58,267 nt of DNA. Source: a virus. The notes beneath the pieces were generated by a model that was not told the origin of the DNA, ran no database searches, and saw only the letters and a list, made by a program, of their open reading frames with translations. Of the stretch, positions 3,434 to 58,267 are shown one piece after another. A program made the position numbers and the translations under genes. Every line of letters begins with the position of its first letter. Within the stretch, counting starts at the first letter, position 1. The stretch lies in IMG/VR virus record IMGVR_UViG_3300036853_000250, positions 1-58,267 of that record; one strand, 5' to 3'.

Positions 3434-3449
3434 CCATGCCGGTCGTCAA
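3421..3449 (-). promoter_or_regulatory. Predicted leftward early promoter (PL-like): -35 TTGACG (3449..3444), 17-nt spacer, -10 TAATCT (3426..3421)
   Basis: Read on the minus strand as TTGACG-ACCGGCATGGGTGGAAT-TAATCT-CCACTC-ATG. Confidence 0.5.
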
Positions 3450-3586: not shown

Positions 3587-3610
3587 ATCCAACCACTGTC
3601 AGCGGTCGGA

Positions 3611-4323: not shown

Positions 4324-4364
4324 CGCTGGCGTCGCGCGTGGGCTGCCGGCGTCGCATGACGTCG

Positions 4365-4742
4365 TCATCCTGCACCTCGCTGGCGTTTGTAGTCGCGGAC
4401 CACCCACACCGTGAGCGCAAGCAACGTCATCAATCCCGCGACCCTTCCGACGGTGTGCGCGCGAGGCCAGCTGGCCCATCGCGTGAACGCTTCTTTGCGA
4501 TCCTCGTCATCCCTGCTCTCTCGCGTGACGAGCTGCCATCCACCAAGCGACGCACCCGAGAGGTAGCCCTCGACGAACACCGACAGGCCATGCCGTGGCG
4601 CTGGCCTGCTTGGGAGCAACGCCGCATCCCACACATCGGGCTCGTGCTCGGTGCCGTCGTCGACAAAGAACCAGACCGCTCCGCCGATGATCGCGCTCGC
4701 GACGTACAACGCAACGATTCCAGATATCAGTTGGTTGGGCAT
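4365..4742 (-). CDS. two-pass membrane protein (125 aa) antisense to the rightward operon
   Basis: ORF 4365..4820 trimmed to the ATG at 4742. Hydrophobic segments are ISGIVALYVASAIIGGAVWFFV and VAGLMTLLALTVWVV. It is convergent with the Cro-like gene. Confidence 0.55.
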   Translation of the reverse strand: MPNQLISGIVALYVASAIIGGAVWFFVDDGTEHEPDVWDAALLPSRPAPRHGLSVFVEGYLSGASLGGWQLVTRESRDDEDRKEAFTRWASWPRAHTVGRVAGLMTLLALTVWVVRDYKRQRGAG

Positions 4743-11004: not shown

Positions 11005-12766
11005 CGTCCAGCTCGAGCGCCAGCTTGTCGCCGCGCTGATCGCCAATCCCGATCAGCACGCCATCTGCGGCGCACTCGGCGTCTCCGACTTCGGCGACTT
11101 GCACGCACAGCGAGCGTGGCTGTGCCTCGCCAACGTGCTCGCGCGTGGCGAGTGGGTGACGCCCGAGACGCTATCCAACGAGGCGCAGTCTCACTTCGGC
11201 CAGGCCGGCGCCGCCGACACCCTCGACTGGCACGACCTGCAGTGGCTGACCGACCTGATCGCCACGCCGTACCCGGTGCCACACGATATCCCGGTGTGGG
11301 CGTCGCAGGTGCTGGTGCTGGCCGAGACGAGACAGGCCGCGATCCAGGCTGCTGAAAGGCCGCCGGCTCGCACCCCAAAGGGTCCGCGCGCCGAGAACGT
11401 CGAGCCGGTGCGGCTGGCGGAGGCGTTCCGACGGTATGCGTTCGAGCTCGCCGAGATCCCCACGCTGGTCCGCTGGGCGCGCGCGTGGTGGCGCTACGAC
11501 GGCACCCGGTACGTGGAGCACGATGACGAGTTGCTGGATCGAGACGTGATCTCGTTCCTCGATGTCGTCGTCGCTCCGCAGGAGATCCGCGACAAGGACA
11601 CCAAGCAGATCAAGACGACCACGCGGCGGGTCACGCACCGCAAGAAGACTTCGGCCGAGCTGCGGCACGCGCTGCTCCACGTCATGCCGTCGCTCGTCGG
11701 CGGCGCTCCGCAGTGGACCGCCCATGAACCAGGAGACGTCATGCCAGACAACCTCATCCCCGTCGCCAACGGCCTGCTCGACGTAAACAGCCGTACCCTG
11801 CATCCCAGCACGCCGCGATTCTTCTCGACCACGGCCATTGGCACCAGCTGGGACCCCGACGCGCCCGAGCCGGCTGCGTGGCTGGCGTTCCTCGACAGCC
11901 TGTGGCCCGACGATCGCGAGAGCATCCGCGCGCTGCAGCAGGCGTTCGGCTACCTGCTCACCGCGGACACGTCGCAGCAGAAGCTGTTCGCGCTGATCGG
12001 CCCGCCGCGGTCGGGCAAGGGCACCATCGCCCGGATCCTGCGCGGGTTGCTCGGTGATGAGGCGGTGGTCAATCCGACGCTGCAATCGCTCGAGCGGCCG
12101 TTCGGGCTCGCGCCGCTCGTCGGCAAGACGCTGGCGATCATCGGCGACGCCCGACTCGGCGGCAAGAGCGACCAGGCGCAGGTGGTCGAGCGGCTGCTCA
12201 GTATCAGCGGCGAAGACAGCCTCTCCATCGACCGCAAGAACAGGGACCCGGTCAACGTGCGGCTCAAGTGCCGCGTGCTCTTGCTCTCCAACGAGCTGCC
12301 ACGGCTCTACGACACCAGCGGGGCGCTCGCGTCGAGGTTTCTGATCCTGTGCCTGTCCCGCTCGTTCCTCGGCTCTGAGGACACCGGCCTCGAGGGCAAG
12401 CTCCTCGCGGAGCTCCCCGGCATCCTGCGCTGGGCGATGGACGGCCGCGATGACCTCGCGGAGGCGGGCAGGTTCATCACACCGGCCGCGAGCGATGTCG
12501 CCCAGCGGCATCTGAACGCAATCTCGAACCCGCTGGGCGTGTTTCTGGAGGAGTGCTGCGAGATGGGGCCAGGGCACACCGTGTCCGTCACCGACTTCTA
12601 CGCGCGCTACCGCAGCTGGTGCGAGTCCAGCGGGCGCGAGCCGGCCAACAAGCAGGTGTTCTGCCGCGACGTTCACACGCTGCATCCGCACCTCGAAACG
12701 ACCATGCCTCGACGTCCAGACGGCACCAGAATCCGCATCTACCAGGGCATCAGATGCAATCTGTAA
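10976..12766 (+). CDS. Replicative SF3 helicase (D5/P4 primase-helicase C-terminal type) with DnaB-N-like N-terminal domain
   Basis: N-terminus LERQLVAALIANPD...DFGDLHAQRAWLCLANVLARGEWVTPETL resembles the DnaB N-domain. Walker A is GPPRSGKGT. Layout matches the P4-family C-terminal domain. Confidence 0.8.
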   Translation: MTPPLNALIDVQLERQLVAALIANPDQHAICGALGVSDFGDLHAQRAWLCLANVLARGEWVTPETLSNEAQSHFGQAGAADTLDWHDLQWLTDLIATPYPVPHDIPVWASQVLVLAETRQAAIQAAERPPARTPKGPRAENVEPVRLAEAFRRYAFELAEIPTLVRWARAWWRYDGTRYVEHDDELLDRDVISFLDVVVAPQEIRDKDTKQIKTTTRRVTHRKKTSAELRHALLHVMPSLVGGAPQWTAHEPGDVMPDNLIPVANGLLDVNSRTLHPSTPRFFSTTAIGTSWDPDAPEPAAWLAFLDSLWPDDRESIRALQQAFGYLLTADTSQQKLFALIGPPRSGKGTIARILRGLLGDEAVVNPTLQSLERPFGLAPLVGKTLAIIGDARLGGKSDQAQVVERLLSISGEDSLSIDRKNRDPVNVRLKCRVLLLSNELPRLYDTSGALASRFLILCLSRSFLGSEDTGLEGKLLAELPGILRWAMDGRDDLAEAGRFITPAASDVAQRHLNAISNPLGVFLEECCEMGPGHTVSVTDFYARYRSWCESSGREPANKQVFCRDVHTLHPHLETTMPRRPDGTRIRIYQGIRCNL

Positions 12767-12887: not shown

Positions 12888-12948
12888 CCCCACCCGGCGT
12901 CAGAATTTGGATCTCTCTCTTATATTCTGGGGGGGAAGATCGAGAATA

Positions 12949-12978
12949 CCCCGTGCCACCCCGTGCCAGTGCGTGCCG
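12949..12978. repeat. Tandem 10-bp repeats CCCCGTGCCA CCCCGTGCCA GTGCGTGCCG
   Basis: The core CGTGCCA is the reverse complement of the TGGCACG that starts each 24-mer. Confidence 0.85.
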
Positions 12979-13014
12979 AACCGCATTCAGATTGCACCTA
13001 CACAGGAGTTGCAT

Positions 13015-13548
13015 GTGAGCGACGAGTGCACCACTGTCAGCTTTTCACCACTACTCCATGAGCGCTCCAATGAGCCACAGCAGGACTCAGGCGCGCAGTC
13101 AGCCGACCCGGCCGCGCCGCGCGCGCAGAACGCAAGCCAGACCCCCAAACGTCACGCCTCGCGAGCCGACCTCGGACCGCGGATTCGCCGCCTGACGCGC
13201 AAGCGTGCCGACCTCACTGCGCTGCGAGCCGAGACAGCCGCGCTGGTGACGCCGGAGGTCGCCGCGCAACTGGCGGACCGGCCGCGGACGCGCGGCGATT
13301 GCGCCGATGGGCCCCGGCCGTGCCCTTGGGCGGCGTGTCGGCACCACCTGGCGCTCGACGTAAACCCCGAGACCGGCTCGATGCGCGTCGTGCCGGATCC
13401 CGCCGAGACCTGCTCGCTCGACGTCGCCGACCGCGGCGGCGTGACGCTCGAGGAGATCGGCCAGCTCACGAACCTCACCCGCGAGCGTATCCGGCAGATC
13501 GAGCACCGCGGCTTGCGCTTGCTCAAGCTGCGGATGCCGAGATGGTAG
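13015..13548 (+). CDS. Sigma-70 region-4-like HTH DNA-binding protein (177 aa) with upstream Cys/His cluster
   Basis: C-terminus TLEEIGQLTNLTRERIRQIEHRGLRLLK matches the sigma region 4.2 pattern. Also has CADGPRPCPWAACRHHL. AGGAG lies 6 nt before the GTG at 13015. Confidence 0.7.
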   Translation: MSDECTTVSFSPLLHERSNEPQQDSGAQSADPAAPRAQNASQTPKRHASRADLGPRIRRLTRKRADLTALRAETAALVTPEVAAQLADRPRTRGDCADGPRPCPWAACRHHLALDVNPETGSMRVVPDPAETCSLDVADRGGVTLEEIGQLTNLTRERIRQIEHRGLRLLKLRMPRW

Positions 13549-34530: not shown

Positions 34531-37094
34531 TGGCCCTGTTCGGCACAGACATGGTCAACGTGCAGACGCCCGATGGGCGACGGCTGACGTTGCCCGCGCA
34601 GCTCGCGCAGCAGTTCCCCGGGCTGCAGCCGGTGGCCCCGCTGCAGCAGAGCCTGGGGCCGTCGCTTGGCGGCGCCGCGCCCGGCCCGCCGCCGGCCCCA
34701 GTGCCGGAGGTTGCCGCGCCCGCGCCGCCGCCGGGCCCCGTGACCGCGCCGAGCCAGTCGGCGCCGACCGGCCCCACGCCCGCGCCGCCTCGCGGGCCGG
34801 TGACGTCGCCTGCGCAGGTGCCCGAGCCGGGACCCGTGAACACGCCGAAGCCTCCCACCGATGCCGAGCTGGCCAAGCGCGGCGTGGCCGGTGGACTCGC
34901 CGCGGAGAACGCCGGGTACGACCAGCAGGCCGCGGCAGTCCGCACTGGCGCCATGGTAGACGCCGATGCTGCGACGCAGATCGGACAAGCGATGGCCGCG
35001 CGCGACGCGCAGGCACAGGCCGAGCTCGAGAAGCGCGCGAAGGTCGCCGAGCAACAGCAGGCGCAGCTTGACAGGGCGATGCAAGAGCGCCAGATGGCGG
35101 CGAAGGCGCTCGCTGACAAGAAGATCGACCGGTCCGCGGACCATCCTGTTCTGTCGATGATCAGCATCGTTCTCGGTGCGATCGGAACCGCCATGGTCGA
35201 CCGCGACGCAGCGATCACGGCCGCGATCGGCGGTCGGGCGGCACCGCAGTCGACCGGCGAGAACCCGGCCCTCAGGGCGTTCTACGCGTCCATCGACCGC
35301 AAGGTCGCCGCGCAGATGGCCGACATCGAGAAGGGCCGCGGCGACCTCGCCGAGACCGACAAGACGATCGCCATGATGCGCGCGAACGGTGCCGACCGTT
35401 TACAGACGATGGACGTGCTCCGCGATGCGGCGCTGCAACAGGCCCAGCGCGGCATCGAAACGCTCAAGACAAAGCTCGGCGCGCCACGTGCGCAGGCGAA
35501 CGCGGACATGTTGCTCGCTGACATCCAGCAGAAGCGAGCTGCGTCGGAAAACCAGGCCGCGTCGACAGCGTATCAGCGCATCCAGGCCGAGCAGGCTCGC
35601 AAGGACCAGCTGCAGATGCATGCGCAGAGCGTGGGCGTGCAGCTCCGCGGGCAGAACCTCGAGCAGGGCCGCTGGCAACAGGACTTCGCTGAGAAGAAGC
35701 GGCAGTTTGACATCAAGGAAGCGAACGATCTTGAGGCGGTCAGGCTCGCGCACCCCGGCAAGACGGCCGCCGCGGCTGCAGCTGCGCTCAAAGACAACGA
35801 GGAGCGCGGCATCGGAGACCCGGCCACCGGAAGCTATCTACTTCAGCCCGAGGGCGCGAAGGTCGCGAAGGAAGCCGAGGGCCATCAGGCCACCGCCGAG
35901 CAGTTCCGCGCCGCCGCTGACAGGGAGCAGGATCCAGGTAGGCGTTCGGCACTCGCGGCCCGAGCTGATGCCGAGGCGCAAAAGGCGGCGGAGCTGCGCA
36001 TCGAGGCATCAACCACCGGCACATGGCGCGTTGGCAAGGACGAGCGCAAGGAGGTTTCCTCGCTCGCCTCGACGGCGCAGACCATCGCGAGCACGGCCGA
36101 CGAGATCAAGCTCCTGCGCCAGAAGTACGGCAACGAGTTCACCTCGTCGGCAGCCAAGGCCGAGATGCAGGAAAAGAGCACAGCCCTGCTCATGTATCTG
36201 AAGAACGCGTGGAAACTCGGCGTGCTCAGTGGCAGCGATGCCGAGTACATCGAATCGGCGACTGGCGGCGATCCGTCGAAGCTGACCGCGGCGGACGTCT
36301 CGTCGCTGTTCGGTTCGCCCGACAAAGCGGCTCGACTCGACTCGCTCGTCAGTGGCGTCGAGCAGATGACGCGAAACGAGCTACGCGGCAAAGGCTTCCG
36401 CGGCGAGTTCAAGATCCGTCGCGACGAAGCGGCCAATCTGACCCCCGAAGGCCAGGCCGCCGCCGACGCGCTCGCGCAGCCGACCCCCGGCGAAGAGATC
36501 CAGGGCGCCGGCCGCACCGGCAAGGGTGCGCTCGATACCGTAGGCACGGCGGCGGACAGCTACCTCAACCCGCAGAACACGTGGGCGGCGTTGTCCGGCA
36601 ACCCGTCGGATCCGAAGCGCCGCCGCGAGATCAACGCCGAGCAGAGGGCCACCGGTCGCGGCGACGTCTTCGACATCCCCGGCCTCAATGACACGCAAGC
36701 CAAGGCCGTCGAGGCGAACATCCTCGCGTACAAACAGAACGTCGGCGCGACCGATGAGGCGTCGCGCACGCGCGCGAAGAAAGCGGCTGACACGCTGATC
36801 GGTCTTGCGTCCTCGGATCGGCAGTCGCTGTCCGGCCCCGTGCTCGACGCGCTCGGCGAACATGCACCGGAGCTGCAGAAGCAGGCGTTCGCCCGGCTAC
36901 CCAAGCCACTCGCCACGGCGCGCTCCGGTCGAGAGCAGACGGTTCTCGAGAACACGTCGGTCGGCATCCTTAAGCAGAACGCGCTCGGCGGCGACGAGGC
37001 GTCTAAGGCTGAACTGGGGCGGCGCGCAATCAGTGGCGACAAGGATGCTGTCCGAGCTGTCGCGGATCTGATCAACGCCAGGAAGGTGCGCTGA
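34530..37094 (+). CDS. Internal virion/ejection protein candidate (854 aa) with Pro-rich N-region and one hydrophobic segment
   Basis: Position after the nozzle. Has PPAPVPEVAAPAPPPGPVTAP and VLSMISIVLGAIGTAMV; the rest is long and helical. Confidence 0.55.
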   Translation: MALFGTDMVNVQTPDGRRLTLPAQLAQQFPGLQPVAPLQQSLGPSLGGAAPGPPPAPVPEVAAPAPPPGPVTAPSQSAPTGPTPAPPRGPVTSPAQVPEPGPVNTPKPPTDAELAKRGVAGGLAAENAGYDQQAAAVRTGAMVDADAATQIGQAMAARDAQAQAELEKRAKVAEQQQAQLDRAMQERQMAAKALADKKIDRSADHPVLSMISIVLGAIGTAMVDRDAAITAAIGGRAAPQSTGENPALRAFYASIDRKVAAQMADIEKGRGDLAETDKTIAMMRANGADRLQTMDVLRDAALQQAQRGIETLKTKLGAPRAQANADMLLADIQQKRAASENQAASTAYQRIQAEQARKDQLQMHAQSVGVQLRGQNLEQGRWQQDFAEKKRQFDIKEANDLEAVRLAHPGKTAAAAAAALKDNEERGIGDPATGSYLLQPEGAKVAKEAEGHQATAEQFRAAADREQDPGRRSALAARADAEAQKAAELRIEASTTGTWRVGKDERKEVSSLASTAQTIASTADEIKLLRQKYGNEFTSSAAKAEMQEKSTALLMYLKNAWKLGVLSGSDAEYIESATGGDPSKLTAADVSSLFGSPDKAARLDSLVSGVEQMTRNELRGKGFRGEFKIRRDEAANLTPEGQAAADALAQPTPGEEIQGAGRTGKGALDTVGTAADSYLNPQNTWAALSGNPSDPKRRREINAEQRATGRGDVFDIPGLNDTQAKAVEANILAYKQNVGATDEASRTRAKKAADTLIGLASSDRQSLSGPVLDALGEHAPELQKQAFARLPKPLATARSGREQTVLENTSVGILKQNALGGDEASKAELGRRAISGDKDAVRAVADLINARKVR

Positions 37095-40000
37095 TGCCGG
37101 TCCTGATGCGCAACAAGGACGGCCAGGCCATCGAGGTCGCCGACGAGGACGTCAAGTTCTACGCCGATCGCGGCTACGAGCCCGAGACCACATTCGGCGC
37201 CGTGACGCGCGCCGCGACACCGGACGACGGCGGTGCGCTCGGTACCGCGAACGCGGGCGCACGCGGCTTCTGGTCGGGGCTGACACTCGGCGCGTCGGAC
37301 GTCGTCTCGTCGGCGCTGTCGACCGACCTCGAGCGCGAACAACTGCGAGCAGAGCGGACCGCGCACCCGATCGCCGCCGGTGTCGGCGAGATCGCCGGTC
37401 TTGTCGCCCCGGCGCTCGTCAGCGGCGGTGCGTCACTGCCCGAGTCCACGGCCAGCCTCGGAGCGCGGGCGCTCGAAGCAACCCCCGCCGGCTACCTCAG
37501 TCGCTTCGCGGCCGGTGGCGCCGAAGCCGGGCGCGCGATTGGCGGGCTCGAGGGCGCCGCCAAGGTCGCGGCGTACTCGGGCATCGAGGGCGCCGGTCAG
37601 GCCGCCGGCTCGTACATCTCCGACGTCGCGCTCGGCGACCGCGAACTGACCGCGGAGGGGCTCGCGGGCGCGCTCGGCCACGGCTTCGAGTTCGGCGCCG
37701 CCGCGGGCGCGGTGACGCATGGCATCGAGCGCGGCACGATCGCGGCGCGCCGGTTGTTCGCCCGGACTGCCGAGGGCGGCACGGGCGCGGCGCTGACCGC
37801 CGAGCAGGAGCTGGCGAGGTCGACGCAGGCCACGCTCGAGGCGCAGGAAGCGGCGGCGGAGGCGGCGCGCGCGCAGTTATCGACGGCGCAGCAGGCGCGC
37901 GAGGCGGCGGAGCTGGCGACCCAGAAGGCGCGGGCCGATCTGCTCGAGGTCAGGAACAGCCTGCAGGAGACCGCGGATACCGTGCAGCGCGGGATCCCGG
38001 AGCACGATGCGCTCGAGGCGCATCTACGCGAGATCCGCGCCCCGGCTATTACGCAAACGGTTCCAACTGACGAGTTGCTTGCGCATGGTGTCTTCAACGA
38101 TACGGCGTCCAAGTGGTCGTCGGTGTCGACGGAGCTGAATGACAAGACCTTGCCGACGGTGCTGGCGATCTCACCGAGCGGCAAGGTCGTCGTGCGGGCG
38201 AACCCACAGGCGCTCAAGGCAGCGGCCGAGCACGGCCAGCCTGCACGCGTGCACTGGACCGTGATGTCCGGCGAGCCGCACCCGCTCGCGGAGGCCATCT
38301 CGACGTCGGGACTCGAGGCCGAGCGCAAGGCGACGCAGTTGCTCGAAGAGACCAAGGCGAAGATCGCCGCGGGGCAGATACCCGGCGAGGTCGGTCCGTT
38401 CACGCCTGAGGGCCTCGACCTCGCCGCAAAGCGCGAGATCGCTCGGCAGGCACGCAAGGAGCCTGACCTCGTCGAGGCCCTCAAGGAATATGACGCGGCC
38501 AAGGCCGAGATGGAGGCGGTCAAGCGCCAAGTCGAAGCCGCTCCGCGTGCGCCAAGGGCTGCAAGGGTGCAGGTTGAGCCGCCAAAGACTGCAGAGATAC
38601 CCAGCTACACGACGCTGCGGAAAGCAAAGGTGGACTACATCGAGTCCACGGTTCCAGCTCGCGACATCGCCGAGCGGGGTTACTACGAGCCGCCAGGCGG
38701 GCATCTCGACGCCACACGCACATCGAACGCTCGCAAGGCGATTGCCGAGGGTCAGCGTGAGCCGATCAGCCTCGTCGTATCCGAGAGTGGCAAGATCCAG
38801 GTCGAAGGCGGCCGACATCGCCTGCAGGCCGCCATCGAGGCCGACGCGCCAATCAAGGTGAAGTGGAGCTATGGCTACGAGCCCTCCAAGGAAATGGTGG
38901 CCCGTGGCGCGGCTGCGAAGTCCGGTTCGCTCGAGGTCAAGCGTGTTGGTCGGCCCAGCGAGGGGAAATTTGAAGTACGCAATCCAGACGGGACTGTGAC
39001 TCAGCTCGATCGGAACAGTGCGCGAGAGCTGGCAGAGAGTCAGATGCCGCCGGGATTCACGATCGGGCCACGGATGGAAACGCACCGTGACTTCTCGATC
39101 TTGAGAGGGGTCCCAAAGACTGCCGACGAGATCGTCGAGAATAGCACCTACGTCGTAAAGCCCAGCGAACTGGCACATCGTGGCGTCATCGGCAACGAGA
39201 TACACCCAGAGCATTTATCGAGCATGATCAAGGCTCGAGCTGGAGAGGTAAGGCTCGAGCCGATTGATATTCGCGTCACCCAAGACGGCAGGATGTACGT
39301 TGAGGACGGCAACCACAGACTGCAGGTCGCTGCGCGCACGGATGCTCCGGTAGCGGTAAATTTTAGAGCCGCAGGGGACGGCTACAAGCCACAGCAGAGC
39401 AGTCGAGACATTACCGGTCGACTGCTCGCAGATTTGCCCGCCGGCAGGGGGCGCCGCGCCGCACTGGACCCGCTCGCCGGCTTCGCGCAGGACGTCCACG
39501 ACGCGATCGCGCGGATCGGCGATGGCCCGGCGCAGCGGTACGGCCGCGAAGGCGTTTTCATCTCGGCGATCCACGACGAGATGAGGCAGGCCGGCTACCG
39601 CGGCTCGTTGGCTGACTTCAAGCGCGAGCTGATCAAGGCGAACCGCGAGCAGCTGTTGAACCTGAACCGCGCCGATCTTGTGGATGCGATGCCGGGTCAC
39701 GCGGTCGAGGCCAGCGAGATCGCCGACATGGGCTCCACGTTCCATTTCGTCGAGGACCAGGGCAGGGGGCGCCGCGCCGCAGCGGCTGCGCCACAGCAAT
39801 CCCCGCTCGAGCGCCAGCTCGCGGCGATGAAGACGCAGCTCGATTCCGGCGCCGACATTGGCACGCTGAGCCGCACGCGTACCGCATCGCCGCGGTCGCC
39901 GGAGCAGCTCGAGACCGCCTATGAGGAAGCGATTCAGCGCGCTGACGCGGCCAAGGATGTCGGCGAGAAGCAGATGCATCTTCGCGAGGCCGCGGCACTC

Positions 40001-41362
40001 GAGGAGCAACTCAAGCAGACGCCGCGCCGGTCCGTCGTCGAGGACATCGGCGACATGGCCCCGGTGATGACCCGCTACGAACGTGCCGCGGCGCGCGTCA
40101 CCGAGCTTGCTGGCGGCGCTGCGCCGGAGGCCGCGCGCGCCCATGCCGTCGCGTTCCGCGAGGCCGAGGCCGAGGCCGAGCGCAAAATGATGGATCGGAC
40201 GGCGAGAGCGATCGACGACGCGCAAAACCCGTTGATCAGCCCCGAGGGAAAGCTCGCCAAAGCCCGCGCCGGCAAGGCGGCGGCCGACATCGAGCTCGCC
40301 AAGGCTCGCGTCGCCGAGACCGAAGCATCGCTTGGCGCGCGGGCCGCAGCGGACACCGCCAAGTTTGCACGCGAGGCGTTCGAGGCGGCGCAACCGAAAC
40401 CGCCCGAGCCGGGACTGTTCGGTCAGCTGGCCGGCATGCCGGAGGCCCACGCCATTCCGGTAATCGGCCCGATGCTCAACCGCTACGCGCAGGGCAAGAT
40501 CATGGTCGAGTCGGCCAAGCGCTTCGTTGGCCGCGTGCCGGCGACCGCGACTGGCAAGGCTGCGGCGCTCGCTGCGCGAGTGCGCGACAAGATCGCCAGC
40601 GCCGTCGATCGGTCGCTCGGCCTGATCGAGCGGGCCGCACCCGACGCGCGCCGGCCCGCGGTTGCCGTCCTGGGCGTGCTCGAGCGGCGCGCGTTCGACG
40701 ATGGCGAGCCCGGCGCGCCCAAGGGCGCGAGCGCCACCAAGCTCGCGGCGGTCCGGATCCGCGAGGTCGCCGCCGCAGCCACGAATCCTGATCGGGTGAT
40801 CGCGCAGGTCCGCGGCGAGATGCGCGACGTCACCGATCCGGACCTGATCGCCGCGGCCGAGAAGCACCGCGTGGCGATGTATCAGCACCTCAACGACAAT
40901 GCCCCCAAGGGGCCGCCACCGAACCCGTACACGAAGCGCGAGTGGGAGCCATCGCCCGCGGAGGCGCTGCGGTTCGCGCGCCGGCTCGAGGTCGCCAACG
41001 ACCCCGTGGCTGCGTTCGAGGCGCTGCATCAGCAGTGCCTGACCACGGAGGCGGCCGAAACGCTGCGCGCGGTCTGGCCGAAACTGTTTGGCGAGGCGCA
41101 ACAGCGGCTGGTCTCGAGGGCGCAGGACATCAAGAAACCCGTCGCCTACGACCAGTTGCTCCGCAACTCGCTCCTGTTCGACGTGCCGCTGCACCCGTCA
41201 CTCGAGCCGGACAACGCGGTGGTGCTGCGCTCGGCGTTCGCGCCGATGCCACCGACGCCCGGCACGGGTGCTCCTCAGCCGCCGGTCCCGTCGATCTCCG
41301 GCGGCACCAACCTGACCGCTCTCTACCAGCCGGGCCCAGCCCCGCGCGCATCGATGAGGTGA
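37094..41362 (+). CDS. Giant internal virion/ejection protein (1422 aa) carrying three tandem ParB/sulfiredoxin-like modules
   Basis: Occupies the slot of the T7 gp16-class protein. Carries the motifs KIQVEGGRHRLQAAIEADAPIKV and RMYVEDGNHRLQVAARTDAPVAV. Confidence 0.7.
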   Translation: MPVLMRNKDGQAIEVADEDVKFYADRGYEPETTFGAVTRAATPDDGGALGTANAGARGFWSGLTLGASDVVSSALSTDLEREQLRAERTAHPIAAGVGEIAGLVAPALVSGGASLPESTASLGARALEATPAGYLSRFAAGGAEAGRAIGGLEGAAKVAAYSGIEGAGQAAGSYISDVALGDRELTAEGLAGALGHGFEFGAAAGAVTHGIERGTIAARRLFARTAEGGTGAALTAEQELARSTQATLEAQEAAAEAARAQLSTAQQAREAAELATQKARADLLEVRNSLQETADTVQRGIPEHDALEAHLREIRAPAITQTVPTDELLAHGVFNDTASKWSSVSTELNDKTLPTVLAISPSGKVVVRANPQALKAAAEHGQPARVHWTVMSGEPHPLAEAISTSGLEAERKATQLLEETKAKIAAGQIPGEVGPFTPEGLDLAAKREIARQARKEPDLVEALKEYDAAKAEMEAVKRQVEAAPRAPRAARVQVEPPKTAEIPSYTTLRKAKVDYIESTVPARDIAERGYYEPPGGHLDATRTSNARKAIAEGQREPISLVVSESGKIQVEGGRHRLQAAIEADAPIKVKWSYGYEPSKEMVARGAAAKSGSLEVKRVGRPSEGKFEVRNPDGTVTQLDRNSARELAESQMPPGFTIGPRMETHRDFSILRGVPKTADEIVENSTYVVKPSELAHRGVIGNEIHPEHLSSMIKARAGEVRLEPIDIRVTQDGRMYVEDGNHRLQVAARTDAPVAVNFRAAGDGYKPQQSSRDITGRLLADLPAGRGRRAALDPLAGFAQDVHDAIARIGDGPAQRYGREGVFISAIHDEMRQAGYRGSLADFKRELIKANREQLLNLNRADLVDAMPGHAVEASEIADMGSTFHFVEDQGRGRRAAAAAPQQSPLERQLAAMKTQLDSGADIGTLSRTRTASPRSPEQLETAYEEAIQRADAAKDVGEKQMHLREAAALEEQLKQTPRRSVVEDIGDMAPVMTRYERAAARVTELAGGAAPEAARAHAVAFREAEAEAERKMMDRTARAIDDAQNPLISPEGKLAKARAGKAAADIELAKARVAETEASLGARAAADTAKFAREAFEAAQPKPPEPGLFGQLAGMPEAHAIPVIGPMLNRYAQGKIMVESAKRFVGRVPATATGKAAALAARVRDKIASAVDRSLGLIERAAPDARRPAVAVLGVLERRAFDDGEPGAPKGASATKLAAVRIREVAAAATNPDRVIAQVRGEMRDVTDPDLIAAAEKHRVAMYQHLNDNAPKGPPPNPYTKREWEPSPAEALRFARRLEVANDPVAAFEALHQQCLTTEAAETLRAVWPKLFGEAQQRLVSRAQDIKKPVAYDQLLRNSLLFDVPLHPSLEPDNAVVLRSAFAPMPPTPGTGAPQPPVPSISGGTNLTALYQPGPAPRASMR
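39443..39463. repeat. 21-bp direct repeat GGCAGGGGGCGCCGCGCCGCA, copy 1 (inside 37094..41362)
   Basis: Perfect match to 39761..39781; offset 318 nt, which is 106 codons. Confidence 0.95.
39761..39781. repeat. 21-bp direct repeat, copy 2
   Basis: Perfect match to 39443..39463. Confidence 0.95.
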
Positions 41363-46283: not shown

Positions 46284-46565
46284 GTGTCCCTCGCCGCCGC
46301 TCTCCGCGCCGCGCATGACGACCTGACCGCCGTTGAATGGCAGGTCGACACGCTCCTCGAGTCGCTGTTCGCCGGCTGGCGACGGCGGTTCCCGCGCGCG
46401 ATGGGCTGGCGGTTCACGTCGCCCGCGCAGCTCGATGTGTACGACGTCGCCGATCCGCCGCAGCAGACCGTCGAGGTGCTGCGACGCGCGGGCTTCGACG
46501 TCGTGGTCCTGCACGTCCACAAGGCGGTGGCGTTCCTCACCTGTACTTGTAGCGAGGCGAAATGA
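46284..46565 (+). CDS. hypothetical protein (93 aa)
   Basis: ORF track; GTG start. Confidence 0.45.
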   Translation: MSLAAALRAAHDDLTAVEWQVDTLLESLFAGWRRRFPRAMGWRFTSPAQLDVYDVADPPQQTVEVLRRAGFDVVVLHVHKAVAFLTCTCSEAK

Positions 46566-47359
46566 CTGGAGTACTGGTCAACGGCATCGTGGTCCCCGTC
46601 CCCGGCGTCACCGTCATCGGGCCAGGTTCGGCTCCATGGGCGCAGGCCTCACCAGAGGACGGCCGCAGCCGCAACCGCTGGCCGCAGCAACTGATCCTCC
46701 ACAAGACTCTGGCCGACGATCCGGAGGTCGTGCGTCCCGGCATCGGCCCGCTCGGTCACCCGGAGCGCACGGCGCGCGCGTGGGCCGATGCCGGGACGCA
46801 GTCCGGGGCGCCGCTCGTGGTCGGCGGCGAGGCCATCGCGTGTCTTGCCGACGTCGTCCGGTGGAAAGGCTGGCACGCGAACCAGGCCAACGATCGCAGC
46901 GTCGGAATTGAGCACTGCGAGGAGCGCGGCGGAATCGTCTATCAGGCCGTGCTCGACAACGGCGTCGCCCTGGTCCGCGTGCTCGTCGCGGCGCTCGGCA
47001 TCCAGCTACAGGTTCCGCGGGGCTACGCTGGCCGGCCGCTGACGCGGTTCAGGGACGGCGGATCGACGCTCGTAGGCGTGTTCGGGCACCGCGACGTCAC
47101 CGACCGGCGCGGGCGTTGGGACCCTGGCGACGAACTGTTCCGGCTGCTGATCCAGCGGCTCGGCGCGGAGGCGTTCGACTTCGAGTCCGGCGAGGACCTG
47201 GCCGCGTGGAAGGACCGACAGCGCTGGCTCAACCGGCGCGGCGAGCGGCTCGTGGTCGATGGGATCCCGGGGCCGGCCACCACGGCCGCGCTGCGGCGCG
47301 CGGGCTACCGCGACGGGATCTGGGCGTTCGGTCCGTGGGCCGAGAATCCGGCGGGTTGA
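46562..47359 (+). CDS. Endolysin: N-acetylmuramoyl-L-alanine amidase (Amidase_2/PGRP type) with C-terminal PG_binding_1 domain
   Basis: Has WHANQANDRSVGIEH, GVFGHRDVTDRRGRWDPG, and a C-terminal LVVDGIPGPATTAALRRAG. Confidence 0.8.
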   Translation: MTGVLVNGIVVPVPGVTVIGPGSAPWAQASPEDGRSRNRWPQQLILHKTLADDPEVVRPGIGPLGHPERTARAWADAGTQSGAPLVVGGEAIACLADVVRWKGWHANQANDRSVGIEHCEERGGIVYQAVLDNGVALVRVLVAALGIQLQVPRGYAGRPLTRFRDGGSTLVGVFGHRDVTDRRGRWDPGDELFRLLIQRLGAEAFDFESGEDLAAWKDRQRWLNRRGERLVVDGIPGPATTAALRRAGYRDGIWAFGPWAENPAG

Positions 47360-47376
47360 GCGCACCGTTGGATGCT

Positions 47377-48072
47377 CTAGCGTATCGCGTTGCCGCGGAC
47401 TACTGGCAATAGCGCCCGCACCAGATCGGCGGCGTTCGCGCCGATCACGTCGACAGAAAAATCCCAGAGCGCGTCCAGATAACTCGCCTCGCCGGAGCGG
47501 CTCTTGTGCGCGAGCGCCGCCGTGACCGTCCGTTCCCAGGCCCATGCCGCCGGGGCACGGGCAATTTCGCTCACGACGATCACGGCGCGCTCAAGTAGCT
47601 GGCCGTAGTAGTGCTGACCGCCGTAGTCGAGCGCGTGCCCATGTTCGCGCCGGAGGATCTCGCGTGCGGCCAACTCAGTCACGAGCTCGTCGAACATCGA
47701 CAGGACGTCCCACCCTCGACCGCGCACGTCATCCCATGTCAGAGTCGGCCACAGGCATGGCGGCACAGAGTCGCGCGTCGCGATCCCGTGCGACAGCCGC
47801 GGCCCGCAGCCGTGGAGAGTCTCGTGCACCATCGTGTGATGGGCGCCGGCCGGCGTGCCGGGGCGCGGCGGCTCGCCCGTCGGCGTGTATGCTGCCAGCA
47901 GATCGGCCGTGTCTCCGTACAACGTCACGGAGCCGTCGAGGTAGTCGAAGGAGCCGCTCGGGCCGCCCGGTCGTCCTGTCTTCGTGCGGAGAACAGAGGA
48001 GCCGGGCAGTGGCCTCGGGACGCATCCGTGGCGCTCGACCAGGGCGTGATATGTGGCGCGGAAGTTCTGCAT
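47377..48072 (-). CDS. HExxH zincin-motif protein (231 aa), unknown family
   Basis: TMVHETLHG followed by the acidic helix MFDELVTELAAREIL; last gene of a three-gene minus-strand operon. Confidence 0.6.
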   Translation of the reverse strand: MQNFRATYHALVERHGCVPRPLPGSSVLRTKTGRPGGPSGSFDYLDGSVTLYGDTADLLAAYTPTGEPPRPGTPAGAHHTMVHETLHGCGPRLSHGIATRDSVPPCLWPTLTWDDVRGRGWDVLSMFDELVTELAAREILRREHGHALDYGGQHYYGQLLERAVIVVSEIARAPAAWAWERTVTAALAHKSRSGEASYLDALWDFSVDVIGANAADLVRALLPVVRGNAIR

Positions 48073-48079
48073 CGAACGA

Positions 48080-48271
48080 CTATCGTGACGAGCCGCGAGC
48101 GACCGCGAGCCCGAGCGCCTCGCGCGCGAGGTCGCTCCACGTCTGGTTCTGCTTGTTGGCCAGGGCGAGCTGGTCGGCCAGCTCGTCGGCTGTGACGCGC
48201 ACGCGCTTGGTGATCCCGCGCGGCTTAGCGCTCGGAGGGCGGCCGAGCTTGGGCTTGCGGCGGGTGGTCAC
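48080..48271 (-). CDS. Ribbon-helix-helix (CopG/Arc/MobC-like) DNA-binding protein (63 aa)
   Basis: Basic arm KLGRPPSAKPRG, then a beta-strand plus two helices: KRVRVTADELADQLALANKQNQTWSDLAREALGLAV. Confidence 0.55.
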   Translation of the reverse strand: MTTRRKPKLGRPPSAKPRGITKRVRVTADELADQLALANKQNQTWSDLAREALGLAVARGSSR

Positions 48272-48459
48272 GAGCGCGACGCCTCCACTGTGGCGTCGCG
48301 CCGCGACGCGAGCACGATCTCGCGGACGTGTGCGGCGCTGACCTGCGCATCATCGATCAGCGCTTGATCGACGATGATTCCGAGGTCACCGGTACCGTCG
48401 TCGAGGTCGGCAAGGGAGGCGAGGATTGCAGAGCGAGCAACGCGCGGCCTGTTCGTCAT
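48268..48459 (-). CDS. hypothetical acidic protein (63 aa)
   Basis: ORF 48268..48729 trimmed to the ATG at 48459 (MTNRPRVARSAIL...); ATGA overlap with the RHH gene. Confidence 0.45.
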   Translation of the reverse strand: MTNRPRVARSAILASLADLDDGTGDLGIIVDQALIDDAQVSAAHVREIVLASRRDATVEASRS

Positions 48460-48463
48460 GCCA

Positions 48464-48481
48464 TTGTTGTAGCCACAACAA
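48464..48481. promoter_or_regulatory. Perfect palindrome TTGTTGT-AGCC-ACAACAA, 4 nt upstream of the 48459 start
   Basis: Read directly; lies in the divergent intergenic region 48460..48530. Confidence 0.6.
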
Positions 48482-48506
48482 TTCCGGCTGTCAATCCTGT
48501 GGCTAC
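48469..48506. promoter_or_regulatory. Inverted repeat GTAGCCACA (48469..48477) / TGTGGCTAC (48498..48506), 20-nt spacer
   Basis: 9-bp perfect arms read directly; nested with the 48464..48481 palindrome. Confidence 0.6.
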
Positions 48507-48530
48507 AGAAATCCGCGCTACGCTCCACCC

Positions 48531-48830
48531 GTGTCTTGCCTCGACTTGGATCCCGCCTGCGACCCCGCCGCGCTCTGCTGCGGCTGTCTCGGCCGTTCCA
48601 TCGCCAGCGCGCGGGGCCAGGCTCGAGTACTCGGAGAATGCTGGGGTGATCGCGTCCACCGCGCGACCCGCGGCCGAGAGCAGCCCGAGGTGTGGCCGGC
48701 GGACGAGCGGACGCTGGCGATCGCCACACGGCTGGTGGCTCGGCTGGTGAGCGATCCGCGGGCTGTCGAGCCGCTCGCCGCGGTGTGCGTGGCCGGCGCG
48801 GCGGCGTGGTGGGCGAGGCGGGCTAGGTGA
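48531..48830 (+). CDS. hypothetical Cys-rich protein (99 aa)
   Basis: Frame of ORF 48426..48830 has G/C at nearly all third positions from the GTG at 48531 onward. N-terminus is CLDLDPACDPAALCCGC. Confidence 0.45.
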   Translation: MSCLDLDPACDPAALCCGCLGRSIASARGQARVLGECWGDRVHRATRGREQPEVWPADERTLAIATRLVARLVSDPRAVEPLAAVCVAGAAAWWARRAR

Positions 48831-49049
48831 TCAGCGGAGCGCCCGTTCCATGGCGTGTTGGTTGCGCTCCTCGATTTCCTCCTCGAGTTCGTCAATCCGC
48901 TCAAGCGCCGCCTCCCAGCGCTTGAGCAGTTCGTCGACCGTGACCGGAAGGCAGCCGCTCGCCTCGACAAGCATTTCATCTCCGTAGTTACGGATGAGCG
49001 AGATGAGGGTGCGATCGGCGTCCCACGCATTGTCGACGACCTTACTCAT
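48831..49049 (-). CDS. hypothetical acidic helical protein (72 aa)
   Basis: ORF track; 8-nt overlap with the upstream gene. Confidence 0.5.
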   Translation of the reverse strand: MSKVVDNAWDADRTLISLIRNYGDEMLVEASGCLPVTVDELLKRWEAALERIDELEEEIEERNQHAMERALR

Positions 49050-49632
49050 CGTCCACCTGCACCATCACGGTCAGCTTGGGCTTGGCCGTCTCGGCGACGC
49101 GAGCGCGGAGCTGTGCGGCCCACAGCGTGCGGGCGGCGGCCAGCTGGCAGGCGGTGAGGTAGCGCCCCTCGGCTCGCTTGATTGCCACCACGCGTTCGGC
49201 GGTTGCCGGTTCGTCGTGGCGCTGCAGCCACACGTACCGCTCCAGGCACTGCTCCGCGGTCAGGCCGTCGTAGAGCGACTCGGGCGCCTCGATGATCCAT
49301 GGGACCAGCGGCATCATCTTGGCCGCCTCGTCCATCAACTTGCCCTGCTTCTGCCAGAACGCGGTGGCGTCGACCTCGGTGAGGCGGTCGGAGGTGAACG
49401 GCACCCACGTCCCGAGGTGCTCGCGTTGCCACACGTGGTCAGCCTTGCGAGTCGGGGTCGGCTCCTCCGCGGTCCACTGCGGCGTCCAGCCAGCCGAAAC
49501 GAACGCAGCGTGAACCTCAGCTCTCGTGGGGTCTGGCAGACCGCCGAAGTACCATCCGCATCCGCCGCAGCGGCCTGACGATGGCCACGGTGCGCTCATG
49601 TACGCGGCTGTCTTGCAGTTCGGGCATTTCAT
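49042..49632 (-). CDS. hypothetical protein with N-terminal zinc ribbon (196 aa)
   Basis: MKCPNCK...GRCGGCG; AGGAG lies upstream of the ATG at 49632; its promoter region abuts attP. Confidence 0.55.
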   Translation of the reverse strand: MKCPNCKTAAYMSAPWPSSGRCGGCGWYFGGLPDPTRAEVHAAFVSAGWTPQWTAEEPTPTRKADHVWQREHLGTWVPFTSDRLTEVDATAFWQKQGKLMDEAAKMMPLVPWIIEAPESLYDGLTAEQCLERYVWLQRHDEPATAERVVAIKRAEGRYLTACQLAAARTLWAAQLRARVAETAKPKLTVMVQVDDE

Positions 49633-49700
49633 CGGGGCTCCTGTGGTTGTAGCCTTCTATGTTGGCGGGCGGGCGGAAATACGCGCGGGTCGCTGGTGCC

Positions 49701-49715
49701 GCACACCGGCTGCAC
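49701..49715. repeat. 15-bp direct repeat GCACACCGGCTGCAC, copy 1 (candidate integrase arm site)
   Basis: Perfect match to 49886..49900; the two copies flank the tRNA-derived core. Confidence 0.7.
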
Positions 49716-49751
49716 GCGATCGATCTATCTACGCGCCGATGCACATCTCCA

Positions 49752-49798
49752 CGCGGACTGAAAATCCGCGTGTCGTTGGTTCAATTCCGACCCTGGGC
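49752..49798 (+). other. attP core: 3-prime 47 nt of a tRNA-Phe(GAA) gene (anticodon arm, variable loop, T arm, 3-prime acceptor strand, discriminator A)
   Basis: GCGGA-CTGAAAA-TCCGC GTGTC GTTGG-TTCAATT-CCGAC CCTGGGC A. No D arm or 5-prime acceptor strand upstream. Immediately next to the int stop codon. Confidence 0.8.
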
Positions 49799-49799
49799 A

Positions 49800-50897
49800 C
49801 TATCGTTTCGCTGACTTCCGACGAGTTTCGGTAGCGGCCGGAGCGTCAACCGTCTCATTGGTATCCCGTGATCCACGGGTGTCTTGCACACCGGCTGCAC
49901 ACGGCTTCCCGCCGGGCAAACGGCTCACCGCCTCAGCGAGCGTATCCTCGGAGAGCCGACCGTAGACGAGATCGACCATCTTGGTGGACGTGTGGCCGAG
50001 TAGGCGTGCGACTACGGCGCTATCCGTCTTCTGGTTCTTGAGCCAGGACGCGAACGTCCGGCGCAGGTCGTTGGGCGTCACCTTCGGGACCTTGGCGAGC
50101 TCGGCCGCGCGCGCCAGATCGCGGCGGACGTTGCGCCAGCGGGTGACGATCGGTCCAAGCAGGCGCTTGGGAGCACCAGCACGAAGCGCCTCCAGTAGCT
50201 GCGGCGTGATCGGTACGACGCGCCAGCGCGACGTGCGCTTGGTCCCCGGGACGCGCATCTTGGCGCGTCCGAAATCGACATGCTCCCACCGGATCCGTTC
50301 GACCTCGCCGAGTGACAGGCCGCCCCACATCGCGAGCATCACCCACAGGCGACGTCGGGCGGCGACCTTGGTGAGGAAACTCTCGGCCTGGTGCTCATCG
50401 AGCCAGACCTCTTTGGGGTGGTACACCACGCGAACCTTGGGAACGATCGCCTCGATCGACCCGCTCCACAGGTTGCGGGTGCGAGCTTCTGCGAGCGCCC
50501 GGCGCAGCACCACCAGTTCCTTGTGAATGGTGCCGTTAGCGGCGGTTTCGCTCTGCCGTGTCGCGATGTAGCGCATCACGGCATCGCGGGTGATTGCGCC
50601 GACCTCGGTGTCGCCGCCGAGCAGACGCGTGAGGTGGTGACCCTTCTGGGCGTAGGCCGTTGCGGTCGCTGCGGCGCGTTCGACGGCCACTACCGCAAGC
50701 ATGTTGCCGATCGCGTCCCTCAGCGTGTGGTGCGAATGCGTGGCCGGATCGGCCGATCCCAACTCGAGCTTGCGGAGCTTGGCGCGGGCGACTTGCTGAT
50801 CGCGCGTGCGGAGCGACTGCCGCCGCGGCTGTCCTCGGAGATCCGTCCAGTAGCCGTGCCATGTGCCGCCTGGCTTGCGTTGATAGATTCTTCCCAC
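49800..50897 (-). CDS. int: Tyrosine integrase
   Basis: N-terminus VGRIYQRKPGGTWHGYWTDLRGQPRRQSL, with catalytic-region motifs LRRTFASWL and LLGHTSTKMVDLVYGRL. ORF 49800..50981 trimmed to the GTG at 50897. Confidence 0.85.
   Translation of the reverse strand: MGRIYQRKPGGTWHGYWTDLRGQPRRQSLRTRDQQVARAKLRKLELGSADPATHSHHTLRDAIGNMLAVVAVERAAATATAYAQKGHHLTRLLGGDTEVGAITRDAVMRYIATRQSETAANGTIHKELVVLRRALAEARTRNLWSGSIEAIVPKVRVVYHPKEVWLDEHQAESFLTKVAARRRLWVMLAMWGGLSLGEVERIRWEHVDFGRAKMRVPGTKRTSRWRVVPITPQLLEALRAGAPKRLLGPIVTRWRNVRRDLARAAELAKVPKVTPNDLRRTFASWLKNQKTDSAVVARLLGHTSTKMVDLVYGRLSEDTLAEAVSRLPGGKPCAAGVQDTRGSRDTNETVDAPAATETRRKSAKR
49886..49900. repeat. 15-bp direct repeat GCACACCGGCTGCAC, copy 2 (inside the int 3-prime end)
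   Basis: Perfect match to 49701..49715. Confidence 0.7.
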
Positions 50898-51073
50898 GGT
50901 GCCTCTGTTCGGGATGCAAGGTATCGAGCGAGCGCTTCCTCGGGCACGCGCAGCAAGCTGCCGACTCGGACATGCATGCACGAGCGTGCGACGCGGTATG
51001 CGGTTGCGCGCGAGCAGCCAAGGCGCGCGGCGATGTCGGCGGCGGTGAGGTAGACGACGTGCGGACGGGTCAC
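50720..51073 (-). CDS. xis: Excisionase-type (MerR/AlpA-like) HTH protein; ORF extends 178 nt into int in another frame
   Basis: VYLTAADIAARLGCSRATAYRVARSCMHVRVGSLLRVPEEALARYL. The C-terminal ~60 aa are low-complexity. Confidence 0.55.
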   Translation of the reverse strand: MTRPHVVYLTAADIAARLGCSRATAYRVARSCMHVRVGSLLRVPEEALARYLASRTEAPWEESINASQAAHGTATGRISEDSRGGSRSARAISKSPAPSSASSSWDRPIRPRIRTTR

Positions 51074-51321
51074 GGCTTGGCCCGCTTCCGGTACACCCGC
51101 CGCAACGCCGCGAGCCGGTGCTGCTGTTGCTCGGTGTGGCTGTCGCAGATCAGCGCCCGGTACGCGCGCAGCCGGTCAGCAGCGGCGAGCAGGTCCGAAC
51201 GCGTCGGTTCGCCGTAGCGCAGGGTCCACTCGAGGCTATCGGCCCCGTCTGTCTCGTCGGCCCCGGGCATCGGCCAACTCGTCTCGAGGAGCGCGGGATC
51301 GTCGGCGCCGGTGGCGTTCAC
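51070..51321 (-). CDS. hypothetical protein (83 aa)
   Basis: ORF 51070..51435 trimmed to the GTG at 51321 (GTGA overlap). Confidence 0.45.
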   Translation of the reverse strand: MNATGADDPALLETSWPMPGADETDGADSLEWTLRYGEPTRSDLLAAADRLRAYRALICDSHTEQQQHRLAALRRVYRKRAKP

Positions 51322-57632: not shown

Positions 57633-58166
57633 CTACCACTTGGGCTCGCTGAGGTCGCGCATGTACTTGGGCTCGGTGCGCACGCGCCGAGCGACCTGGG
57701 GTTCGCCCGGAAGGGGGGGCGTTCCACCGTCGCTGCGCACGAGTCCAACATGCTCGATGAGAGGCGTGGCGCGAACCGGCGCAGTCTTCGCCGCTTGCTT
57801 GCGGCGCTTCTTCTTGTCGTAGCGCCGCAGGCTCGCGAGCTTCTGCGACTTCGGAACTGGCGCGAGCCGATACTCGCCGGGCGCCATCACGCCAGCACGA
57901 TCGAACGAGACGATCTCCGTGCGCGCGTCTGCGGGGAGCGCATACCGGACCATGCGATCCGGGTACTCGAGGAAGGCCATCGAGCGAAAGAAGTACGCGG
58001 CGACCACGCCGGGCTCGTGTTGAGCCGCTCGCGCGAACGCGCAGCACTTGCTGTTCTTGGCCTTGGCCTTCTTGATGTCGTCGACGGCGACACCGATCAT
58101 GATCGGGGACGTGGCGTCGATGATAGGGATGTTCTTTGCCTTGGCGATGTCGTGTACGTAGCTCAT
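57633..58166 (-). CDS. hypothetical basic protein (177 aa); start codon lies inside the terminal repeat
   Basis: ORF track; AGAGGAA lies upstream of the ATG at 58166 (= position 20). Confidence 0.55.
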   Translation of the reverse strand: MSYVHDIAKAKNIPIIDATSPIMIGVAVDDIKKAKAKNSKCCAFARAAQHEPGVVAAYFFRSMAFLEYPDRMVRYALPADARTEIVSFDRAGVMAPGEYRLAPVPKSQKLASLRRYDKKKRRKQAAKTAPVRATPLIEHVGLVRSDGGTPPLPGEPQVARRVRTEPKYMRDLSEPKW

Positions 58167-58267
58167 GTGTTCCTCTGCTTTCTAAAATTCTTCGTGCTGT
58201 TGTGGTCGTACTCCTCGGTCGACACCAGCTTGATGTTGCGCCGCGTGACCGGCGGCAGGTCGAGCCG
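58147..58267. repeat. Terminal direct repeat, right copy (identical to 1..121)
   Basis: 121/121 nt identity read directly. Confidence 0.95.

Follow-up and report, generated by a model that had tools for sequence, protein, structure and literature searches.

Six open reading frames (ORFs) separate the endolysin gene from the attachment site attP in the virus record IMGVR_UViG_3300036853_000250, and the question they raise is whether they form one system or a mosaic of exchangeable genes. The window analysed here is the whole record (58,267 nt), and the ORFs, named A to F, lie between positions 47377 and 49632. An earlier note, based on the sequence alone, had singled out a minus-strand operon, A-B-C, in which a putative ribbon-helix-helix (RHH) regulator (B) precedes a protein carrying the zinc-protease motif HExxH (C), and had proposed that these genes form an undescribed regulatory or defence module. 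The six ORFs are all present, with the coordinates, motifs and peptides described there. The interpretation built on them stands in part, as to the cargo slot, the zincin and the regulator, whereas the RHH plus HExxH module fails when genomes are compared. We favour, with a probability of roughly 60%, the reading that the region is a mosaic accessory (moron-type) cargo slot at the junction of the lysis cassette and attP rather than one six-gene system, and that within it a small cassette around B is fixed and C is a passenger.

The evidence for this comes mainly from sibling phages. Relatives of B were found in three of them, two on contigs of 58.6–59.3 kb and one on a 1.9-kb fragment, with protein identities of 66–78%. 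Substitutions in B are distributed 11/8/27 over the three codon positions, a pattern indicating that the gene is under purifying selection. In one sibling (L008, IMG/VR contig 3300010400_000023), DNA identity to the window is 86% over xis-int-attP, 73% in D and 76% in B, and this homology stops precisely where genes begin or end. The sibling retains B, D, F, xis-int and attP. It has no counterpart of A or E, nor of the stretch 48070–46395 with C, the amidase gene and most of a 93-amino-acid (aa) gene upstream of the amidase gene. The place of C is taken in L008 by a 55-aa Cys-rich ORF and that of the amidase by a GH25 lysin. In L011/L012, B is followed by a 92-aa ORF and then a GH25 lysin, and in L013 B has no gene after it and an M23 peptidase takes the place of the lysin. 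C is thus absent from the sibling phages, and ahead of B each of the four genomes has an ORF unrelated to those of the others. Although L008 and L011 have homologous GH25 lysins (42% identity), the cargo beside them is different, which indicates that the slot turns over independently of the lysin.

The same separation is seen from the side of C. Four homologs of C were identified (see below), on a 152-kb contig, a 16-kb contig of a metagenome-assembled genome (MAG) and two short contigs, and their neighbours show no similarity to A, to B or to one another. Hence B occurs without C in three siblings, C occurs without A- or B-like neighbours in four places, and the trio, whose joint conservation had been suggested as a check, is not conserved together. 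Adjacent regulator and HExxH genes look paired, and the comparison with siblings corrects this tempting reading by showing that they are not a dedicated pair.

What does persist around B is its promoter region. On the minus strand ahead of A, a –35 element (TTGACA, 48494–48489) and a –10 element (TACAAC, 48471–48466) are separated by a 17-nt spacer, and the ATG of A (48459) follows the –10 hexamer after 6 nt. The near-palindrome TGTGGCTACA covers the –10 element (48468–48477), and a second, inverted copy lies upstream of the –35 element (48498–48507). This 10-mer has the form TGTnGCnACA and no other site in the window; the promoter pattern, too, matches only once in these 58 kb. All three sibling loci share CTTGACTGTGGCTACAGTTGTGGCTACAGTCTGGACATG just upstream of the first ORF of the B operon, and within it a promoter of the same design (–35 TTGACT, 17-nt spacer, –10 TACAGT, 6 nt, ATG), over which L008, L011 and L013 carry two tandem TGTGGCTACAGT repeats. 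The register TTGAC(A/T), 17 nt, TACA(A/G)(C/T), 6 nt, ATG, together with TGTGGCTACA repeats, is therefore common to four phages amid otherwise unrelated DNA. At the level of sequence, B is co-conserved with this putative promoter and operator. The distance of 6 nt between the –10 hexamer and the ATG implies a leaderless mRNA.

Co-conservation with repeats that overlap the promoter suggests that B is the DNA-binding autoregulator of the operon, and this is a stronger argument than the predicted fold. Matches of B to the RHH clan include a PHROG family annotated as 'transcriptional repressor' (phrog_876, E 0.003), a NikA-like family (E 0.04), RHH_5 (E 0.11), RHH_1 (E 0.22) and an Arc-like PHROG family (E 0.25). 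Alignment of the B profile with CopG (hhalign) placed the strand in the expected register with a non-significant E of 0.04, and the corresponding comparison with Arc was not significant. These matches only suggest an RHH fold. Of the earlier description of B as an RHH regulator, then, the regulator has gained conserved operator repeats over a conserved promoter, and the fold stands at sub-threshold matches. Elsewhere in the island, GGCTACAAC (49644–49652, minus strand), which combines half an operator with the –10 hexamer of the A promoter, occurs about 20 nt upstream of the ATG of F; B might bind weakly here as at a second site, or the resemblance may be fortuitous.

C proved to be an orphan. 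Neither Pfam, PHROG, NCBIfam, PADLOC nor PDB sequences gave a match, nor did Pfam (Peptidase_M78 included) for C together with its four homologs at E<=1, and a profile of the family found nothing significant among PDB sequences. An exhaustive HMMER search of 1.84 billion representatives returned the four relatives (P0002, P0003, P0004 and P0006; E 8e-14 to 3e-4), one further match being a repeat artefact. A word-indexed protein search, run with C and with the family profile, recovered C itself and P0004 only, and pattern scans of IMG/VR, GTDB genomes and JGI metagenome contigs yielded no more relatives. The homologs are 27–32% identical to C, and in the alignment of the five members H83, E84, H87, G90, P91, E129, T132, E133 and Y156 are invariant. 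The HExxH motif (H83-E84-T-L-H87) is thus the same in all five, as is the motif ELxTE in the downstream helix. Given that the homologs are only about 30% identical, the HExxH of C is not a chance motif.

To this the predicted structure adds the topology. An AlphaFold (AF2) model of C based on the five-sequence alignment reached a predicted local distance difference test (pLDDT) score of 84.6 and a predicted template-modelling (pTM) score of 0.86; the single-sequence model (pLDDT 40) was unusable. The model contains helices at residues 4–13, 74–86 and 120–144 and strands at 28–31, 40–42 and 49–52. H83 and E84 lie in helix 74–86 with H87 right after it, and E129 and E133 lie on helix 120–144. 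This order of elements is that of the zincin core, which consists of an N-terminal helix, a three-stranded sheet, the HExxH helix and a helix that carries the Glu (Iyer et al. 2017, PMC5512222). The top Foldseek matches of the model are nearly all zinc peptidases, namely LasB/thermolysin-type M4 enzymes, an M1 peptidase, collagenase, minigluzincins and a phage 'zinc-binding metallopeptidase'. The note had suspected that an acidic helix downstream of HExxH could supply the third zinc ligand; E129 and E133, both invariant and both on this helix, are the candidates.

C is therefore most like the zincins (thermolysin/LasB M4, M1, minigluzincins and the metallopeptidases (MPTases) of polyvalent proteins; PMC5512222), with which it shares HExxH on one helix, an invariant Glu some 42–46 residues later on the following long helix, and the arrangement of N-terminal helix, three-stranded sheet and two helices. 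With the polyvalent-protein MPTases there is a further resemblance, since the zincin domain of P0006 sits at the C-terminus of a longer phage protein (379 aa). C differs from all of them in its lack of a profile match, in TM scores of about 0.4, and in being a stand-alone protein of 231 aa with its own HGxGP turn after HExxH and its own ELxTELAxRE helix. We predict that C is a gluzincin-type metallopeptidase of a new, very rare family. H83 and H87, with E129 or E133, would be the zinc ligands, E84 would act as catalytic base, and Y156, invariant too, is a possible transition-state residue. C is most likely an active zinc peptidase that acts on a host or rival-phage protein.

Two observations concern the genes around the C homologs. 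In L004 the homolog is translationally coupled to an upstream acidic ORF of 112 aa, and in both L002 and L004 it stands within a run of small early-type genes. In L007 (positions 247–3591; Logan SRR30224746) three consecutive genes, encoding the 379-aa zincin fusion P0006, a 206-aa ORF and a 413-aa ORF, have a common N-terminal motif, EE(A/S)KHPRxxGKF. The motif might act as a common signal for targeting or processing; when the literature was searched for an N-terminal KHPR...GKF motif, only noise came back.

How might such a slot work? The only evolutionarily stable unit would be the promoter, the TGTGGCTACA operators and the small, basic, RHH-like B. The host-type (sigma-70-like) promoter would direct transcription from at or next to the first ATG, giving leaderless initiation, and B would most likely bind the TGTGGCTACA sites and repress its own operon. 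Autorepression of this kind would keep expression steady, low and phage-autonomous for any gene inserted ahead of B (here A) or behind it (here C). C would be an interchangeable passenger, translationally coupled to B and only hitch-hiking on its promoter. As a soluble cytoplasmic zinc metallopeptidase, it would presumably cleave a specific host or rival-phage protein, that is, a conflict-type target.

The region resembles phage morons of the lambda bor/lom or b-region type in its hypervariable att-proximal content between conserved flanks, in having its own host-type promoter and in being dispensable in siblings. It differs from them in that the cassette has a conserved regulator of its own, B, and that cargo is exchanged on both sides of it within one operon; nor is it a simple promoter-gene-terminator unit, as no terminator is evident. 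Mosaic moron regions and orphan phage enzymes are common, and the zincin superfamily and phage morons are both well known, so current understanding is not overturned. What is new is, on the one hand, a very rare zincin family with clear catalytic signatures in high-GC phages, which is a candidate for target-hunting, and on the other a compact, conserved promoter-operator-regulator cassette of Kofleriaceae phages with apparent leaderless initiation, which may serve as a genetic part and as a marker of cargo slots. A bolder extension holds that the B cassette is a plug-and-play platform of a Kofleriaceae phage lineage for interchangeable conflict effectors. The C family would then be unrecognised phage zincin effectors, acting either as a proteolytic anti-repressor for a CI that lacks a cleavage domain (a protease version of P22 Ant) or as destroyers of a host defence or rival-phage protein. 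We consider this extension unlikely.

Several points weigh against the cargo-slot reading. All profile matches of B are below threshold and the RHH fold is not established; PDB searches with the B sequence found nothing significant and those with its profile came back empty. In the window the second operator copy lies 30 bp off in inverted orientation, as opposed to tandem and at 12 bp in the siblings, so regulation may differ between them. A generic sigma-70 scan of the region reported no promoter. This blank is explained by a –10 element that lacks the final T; the A-B-C promoter came to light by cross-phage comparison only. For C, the alignment behind the model comprised only five sequences, and Foldseek scores against the PDB are E 0.02–0.4 with query TM scores (TMq) of 0.36–0.42, none reaching E<=1e-3. 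The best viral match (E 2e-3, TMq 0.46) is not statistically strong either. Since no fold match is strong, the zincin assignment rests on topology and motifs. Finally, a functional link of C with A, with B or with the repressor is conceivable in this phage, whatever the history of C elsewhere.

The last point leads to the alternative in which B and C do form a unit of secondary immunity, as Arc and Ant do in P22 immI. B would control C, and C would be a proteolytic anti-repressor of the CI-like repressor, which lacks a self-cleavage domain; the differing ORFs after B in the siblings would be anti-repressors matched to their own repressors. In P22 immI (mnt/arc-ant), RHH repressors control an accessory operon in the late region. 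The two share several features: in both cases a small repressor (here presumed, and putatively RHH) lies inside the operon it controls, operator sites overlap the promoter, an effector gene lies downstream and a divergent gene (here D) opposite, the locus is away from the main immunity region, and this phage has a P22-like portal. The putative repressor (127 aa) has no peptidase domain and no Pfam hit. There are differences as well, in that B has no significant similarity to Arc or Mnt, D is Cys-rich and not RHH-like, the downstream gene encodes a predicted zincin and not an Ant-type protein, and the first gene is predicted to be leaderless, with B second in the operon.

One comparison bears on immunity directly. 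In a sibling locus (L033, 6956–7638) the genes flanking the repressor are conserved, and the 127-aa ORF gives way to one for a divergent protein of its own kind, accompanied by a Cro-like helix-turn-helix (HTH) gene. Cargo and immunity thus differ together in one comparable pair, the sibling without C also having a diverged repressor. This replacement between conserved flanks makes the sibling without C look heteroimmune, and the comparison therefore says nothing either way about an anti-repressor. The joint variation, moreover, is seen in one pair only, and the genome is so mosaic that A, E and the lysin differ too. Other observations are harder to accommodate. L013 has no gene downstream of B, the homologs of C elsewhere lie among unrelated small genes with no regulator pattern, and no SOS-type control element was identified.

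The earlier note had also compared the pair to ImmR-ImmA and Xre-COG2856, in which, as here, a small DNA-binding regulator stands beside an HExxH zinc protease on a mobile element. This parallel does not extend further. C has no similarity to Peptidase_M78 (ImmA/IrrE) or COG2856, IrrE/PprI structures align to its model with TM scores of only 0.14–0.17, B is RHH-like rather than an Xre-type HTH protein, and B and C are not co-inherited. Protease anti-repressors of the ImmA type are encoded beside their repressor, but C is not adjacent to the putative repressor gene of this phage, lying about 14.5 kb from it on the circular map. The anti-repressor-protease hypothesis has gained no positive evidence and is left undecided; as an account of the operon we judge it rather improbable.

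A prophage-expressed defence or toxin-antitoxin (TA)-like system, also proposed in the note, would make C a toxic or abortive-infection protease that is held in check by A and/or B and released on superinfection. The setting fits, as a cargo slot at the prophage end with its own host-type promoter is typical of exclusion genes expressed in lysogens. The combination of small acidic protein, regulator and enzyme also recalls three-component TA operons, of which omega-epsilon-zeta is one, and the coupling of the L004 homolog to an acidic ORF points the same way. However, none of the six proteins matches a PADLOC model, A has no homolog and stands beside no C homolog, and the ORFs upstream of the C homologs are mutually unrelated. 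There is no TA signature, given that C lacks a conserved partner. B has no C-terminal toxin-binding extension, and its cassette persists without C, so B is not the dedicated antitoxin or regulator of C. Pattern scans of GTDB genomes and IMG/VR, moreover, revealed no relative of C. These data give no positive sign of a defence or TA role and make it improbable.

We think it just as improbable that the genes behave like the early genes of the lambda b region. According to this explanation, F-E and A-B-C would be expressed in lytic growth mainly by early-left read-through via xis-int and attP, and in the prophage they would be cut off from that promoter. Their purpose would be to take over the host or to counter its defences, with C breaking down a host defence protein. 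F, E, A, B and C do lie on the xis-int/early-left strand, directly downstream across attP, and the L002 and L004 homologs of C stand among early-type genes. No terminator-like site was found by a generic scan of 47000–51300, although such a scan is weak evidence at 67% GC. On the other hand, the conserved autonomous promoter and operator ahead of A favour regulated transcription of A-B-C on its own account, and D is transcribed against any such read-through. For F-E, expression by read-through is possible.

A role for C as a lysis-associated accessory cell-wall or envelope peptidase, acquired with the amidase as one swapped block, was rejected as very improbable: although the two genes form one contiguous block non-homologous to L008, and lysins and accessory peptidases vary among siblings, C has no signal peptide or transmembrane segment visible in its sequence, is encoded on the opposite strand in the operon of B, has homologs that are not beside lysins, and occupies a slot whose content after B differs between L008 and L011 despite their homologous lysins.

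The preferred reading, a mosaic slot with a fixed B cassette, is placed in its genomic setting in Table 1. The first 121 bases of the window recur exactly at its end (1–121 versus 58147–58267), and this terminal overlap shows the phage genome to be a closed circle of 58,146 bp, with a GC content of about 67%. Among its gene products are a helicase, a D5-type primase, a large terminase, the P22-like portal and tail proteins of the pectate-lyase-like and SASA-esterase kinds, besides an Amidase_2 endolysin, a tyrosine integrase and an excisionase-like protein. An independently assembled Logan contig contains an identical copy of a 20.7-kb region. Searches of 50,697 deposited phage genomes with C, F, B, D, the portal-like protein and 4.5 kb of DNA brought up no close relative at the DNA or protein level.

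Table 1. Features of the island and of related regions of the phage genome, in coordinates of the window
Feature	Position	Strand	Remarks
Window immunity region	3611–3994 and 4256–4420		3611–3994, putative CI-like repressor
Endolysin	46562–47359	+	Amidase_2 (Pfam) plus PG-binding motif; convergent with C
C	47377–48072	–	231 aa; predicted soluble metallopeptidase (zincin, gluzincin-type); last in the A-B-C operon
B	48080–48271	–	63 aa, basic (+9), RHH-like; second gene of the operon
A	48268–48459	–	63 aa, acidic; first gene of the operon
Promoter/operator of A-B-C	48460–48512	–	putative; from cross-phage comparison
D	48531–48830	+	99 aa, Cys-rich (7 Cys); divergent from A-B-C, convergent with E
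E	48831–49049	–	72 aa, very acidic (–9), coiled-coil-like
F	49042–49632	–	196 aa; N-terminal CxxC...CxxC zinc ribbon, conserved C-terminus; first gene beyond attP
attP core	49753–49800	+	~48 nt in full agreement with the host tRNA-Phe(GAA) gene over its 3' part, from anticodon stem to acceptor end
Tyrosine integrase	49800–50981	–	Pfam Phage_integrase, E 3e-17; stop codon abuts attP; same strand as the island; 90% identical in L008
Excisionase-like ORF	50720–51073

The attP that the note had proposed is real. An Rfam search gives a tRNA-like match at 49735–49799, and 45 nt of attP are matched exactly in 18 MAG contigs (L015–L032), mostly labelled Kofleriaceae; at the matching place, 17 of the 18 contain a complete tRNA-Phe(GAA) gene. 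From these matches the host is a member of the Kofleriaceae (Myxococcota), of which all genomes found here are metagenome-assembled, and the phage is a temperate one that integrates into tRNA-Phe. For an uncultured phage lineage this is a firm assignment of both host and attB. After integration, int lies beside the rebuilt tRNA gene and F-E-D-A-B-C at the opposite end of the prophage; the note's placing of the cargo slot at the prophage end is upheld by homology that breaks at gene borders and by the swapping of A, E, C and the lysin. One of the contigs, L027, has only a partial tRNA copy, beside an integrase of 34% identity, and represents another element integrated at the same attB.

The genes of the island are tightly packed. 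A and B overlap by 4 nt (GTGA), with GGAGG upstream of the GTG start of B, and C starts 7 nt past the stop codon of B without a Shine-Dalgarno sequence. The ATG of E lies inside the last codons of F, which has GGAG 8 nt upstream of its own ATG. In the convergent pairs the stop codons are 0 nt (D/E) and 17 nt (C/lysin) apart. GC content at third codon positions (GC3) is strong for C, B and F (0.81–0.91; F 0.86) and moderate for A (0.77), E and D. Homologs elsewhere exist for C, B, D and F, and none were found for A and E.

A is variable cargo with a predicted leaderless start. Its ATG is in register with those of the first ORFs in the siblings, and the conserved promoter 6 nt upstream supports the start at 48459, which gives the 63-aa form. 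An 86-aa version produced by an automatic gene caller was rejected, as it would run through and contain the promoter. The position of A is filled in L008 by a different kind of cargo: there the first leaderless ORF of the B operon (12938–13126) encodes a 62-aa protein with a hydrophobic segment, IIAWSVVILIAAFTLIMIM, that is probably membrane-spanning.

On the identical Logan contig the automatic gene caller passed over D, and L011 lacks it. It is present in L008 with 63% protein identity and a conserved N-terminal block, CLDxxPACxPAALCxGCLGRxIASxRGQARVLGECW. Substitutions by codon position (24/25/35) show a weak third-position bias, and the GC frame pattern matches the frame of D over 48640–48830. 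D is probably a real gene. The place of E measures 224 nt in the window versus 22 nt in L008, so that by this alignment E was inserted, with about 210 bp, relative to L008. Pfam and PHROG gave only sub-threshold matches for E, and a PADLOC match to ZorA (E 0.015, 11.7 bits) was set aside as a coiled-coil artefact.

F belongs to a phage-restricted zinc-ribbon family, with homologs in L008 (the 412-aa F'), in L010 (183 aa) and, as a C-terminal remnant, in L011. No family or PDB match was found for F, and a PDB sequence search with F' gave nothing significant. Away from the island, an ORF of 1422 aa at 37094–41362 has no precomputed Pfam hit. In the corresponding position of L011, a 1337-aa protein encoded beside tail genes matches ADPrib_exo_Tox in Pfam (12169–12201; the gene runs off the locus), and this ADP-ribosyltransferase-toxin-matching protein may be an injected effector.

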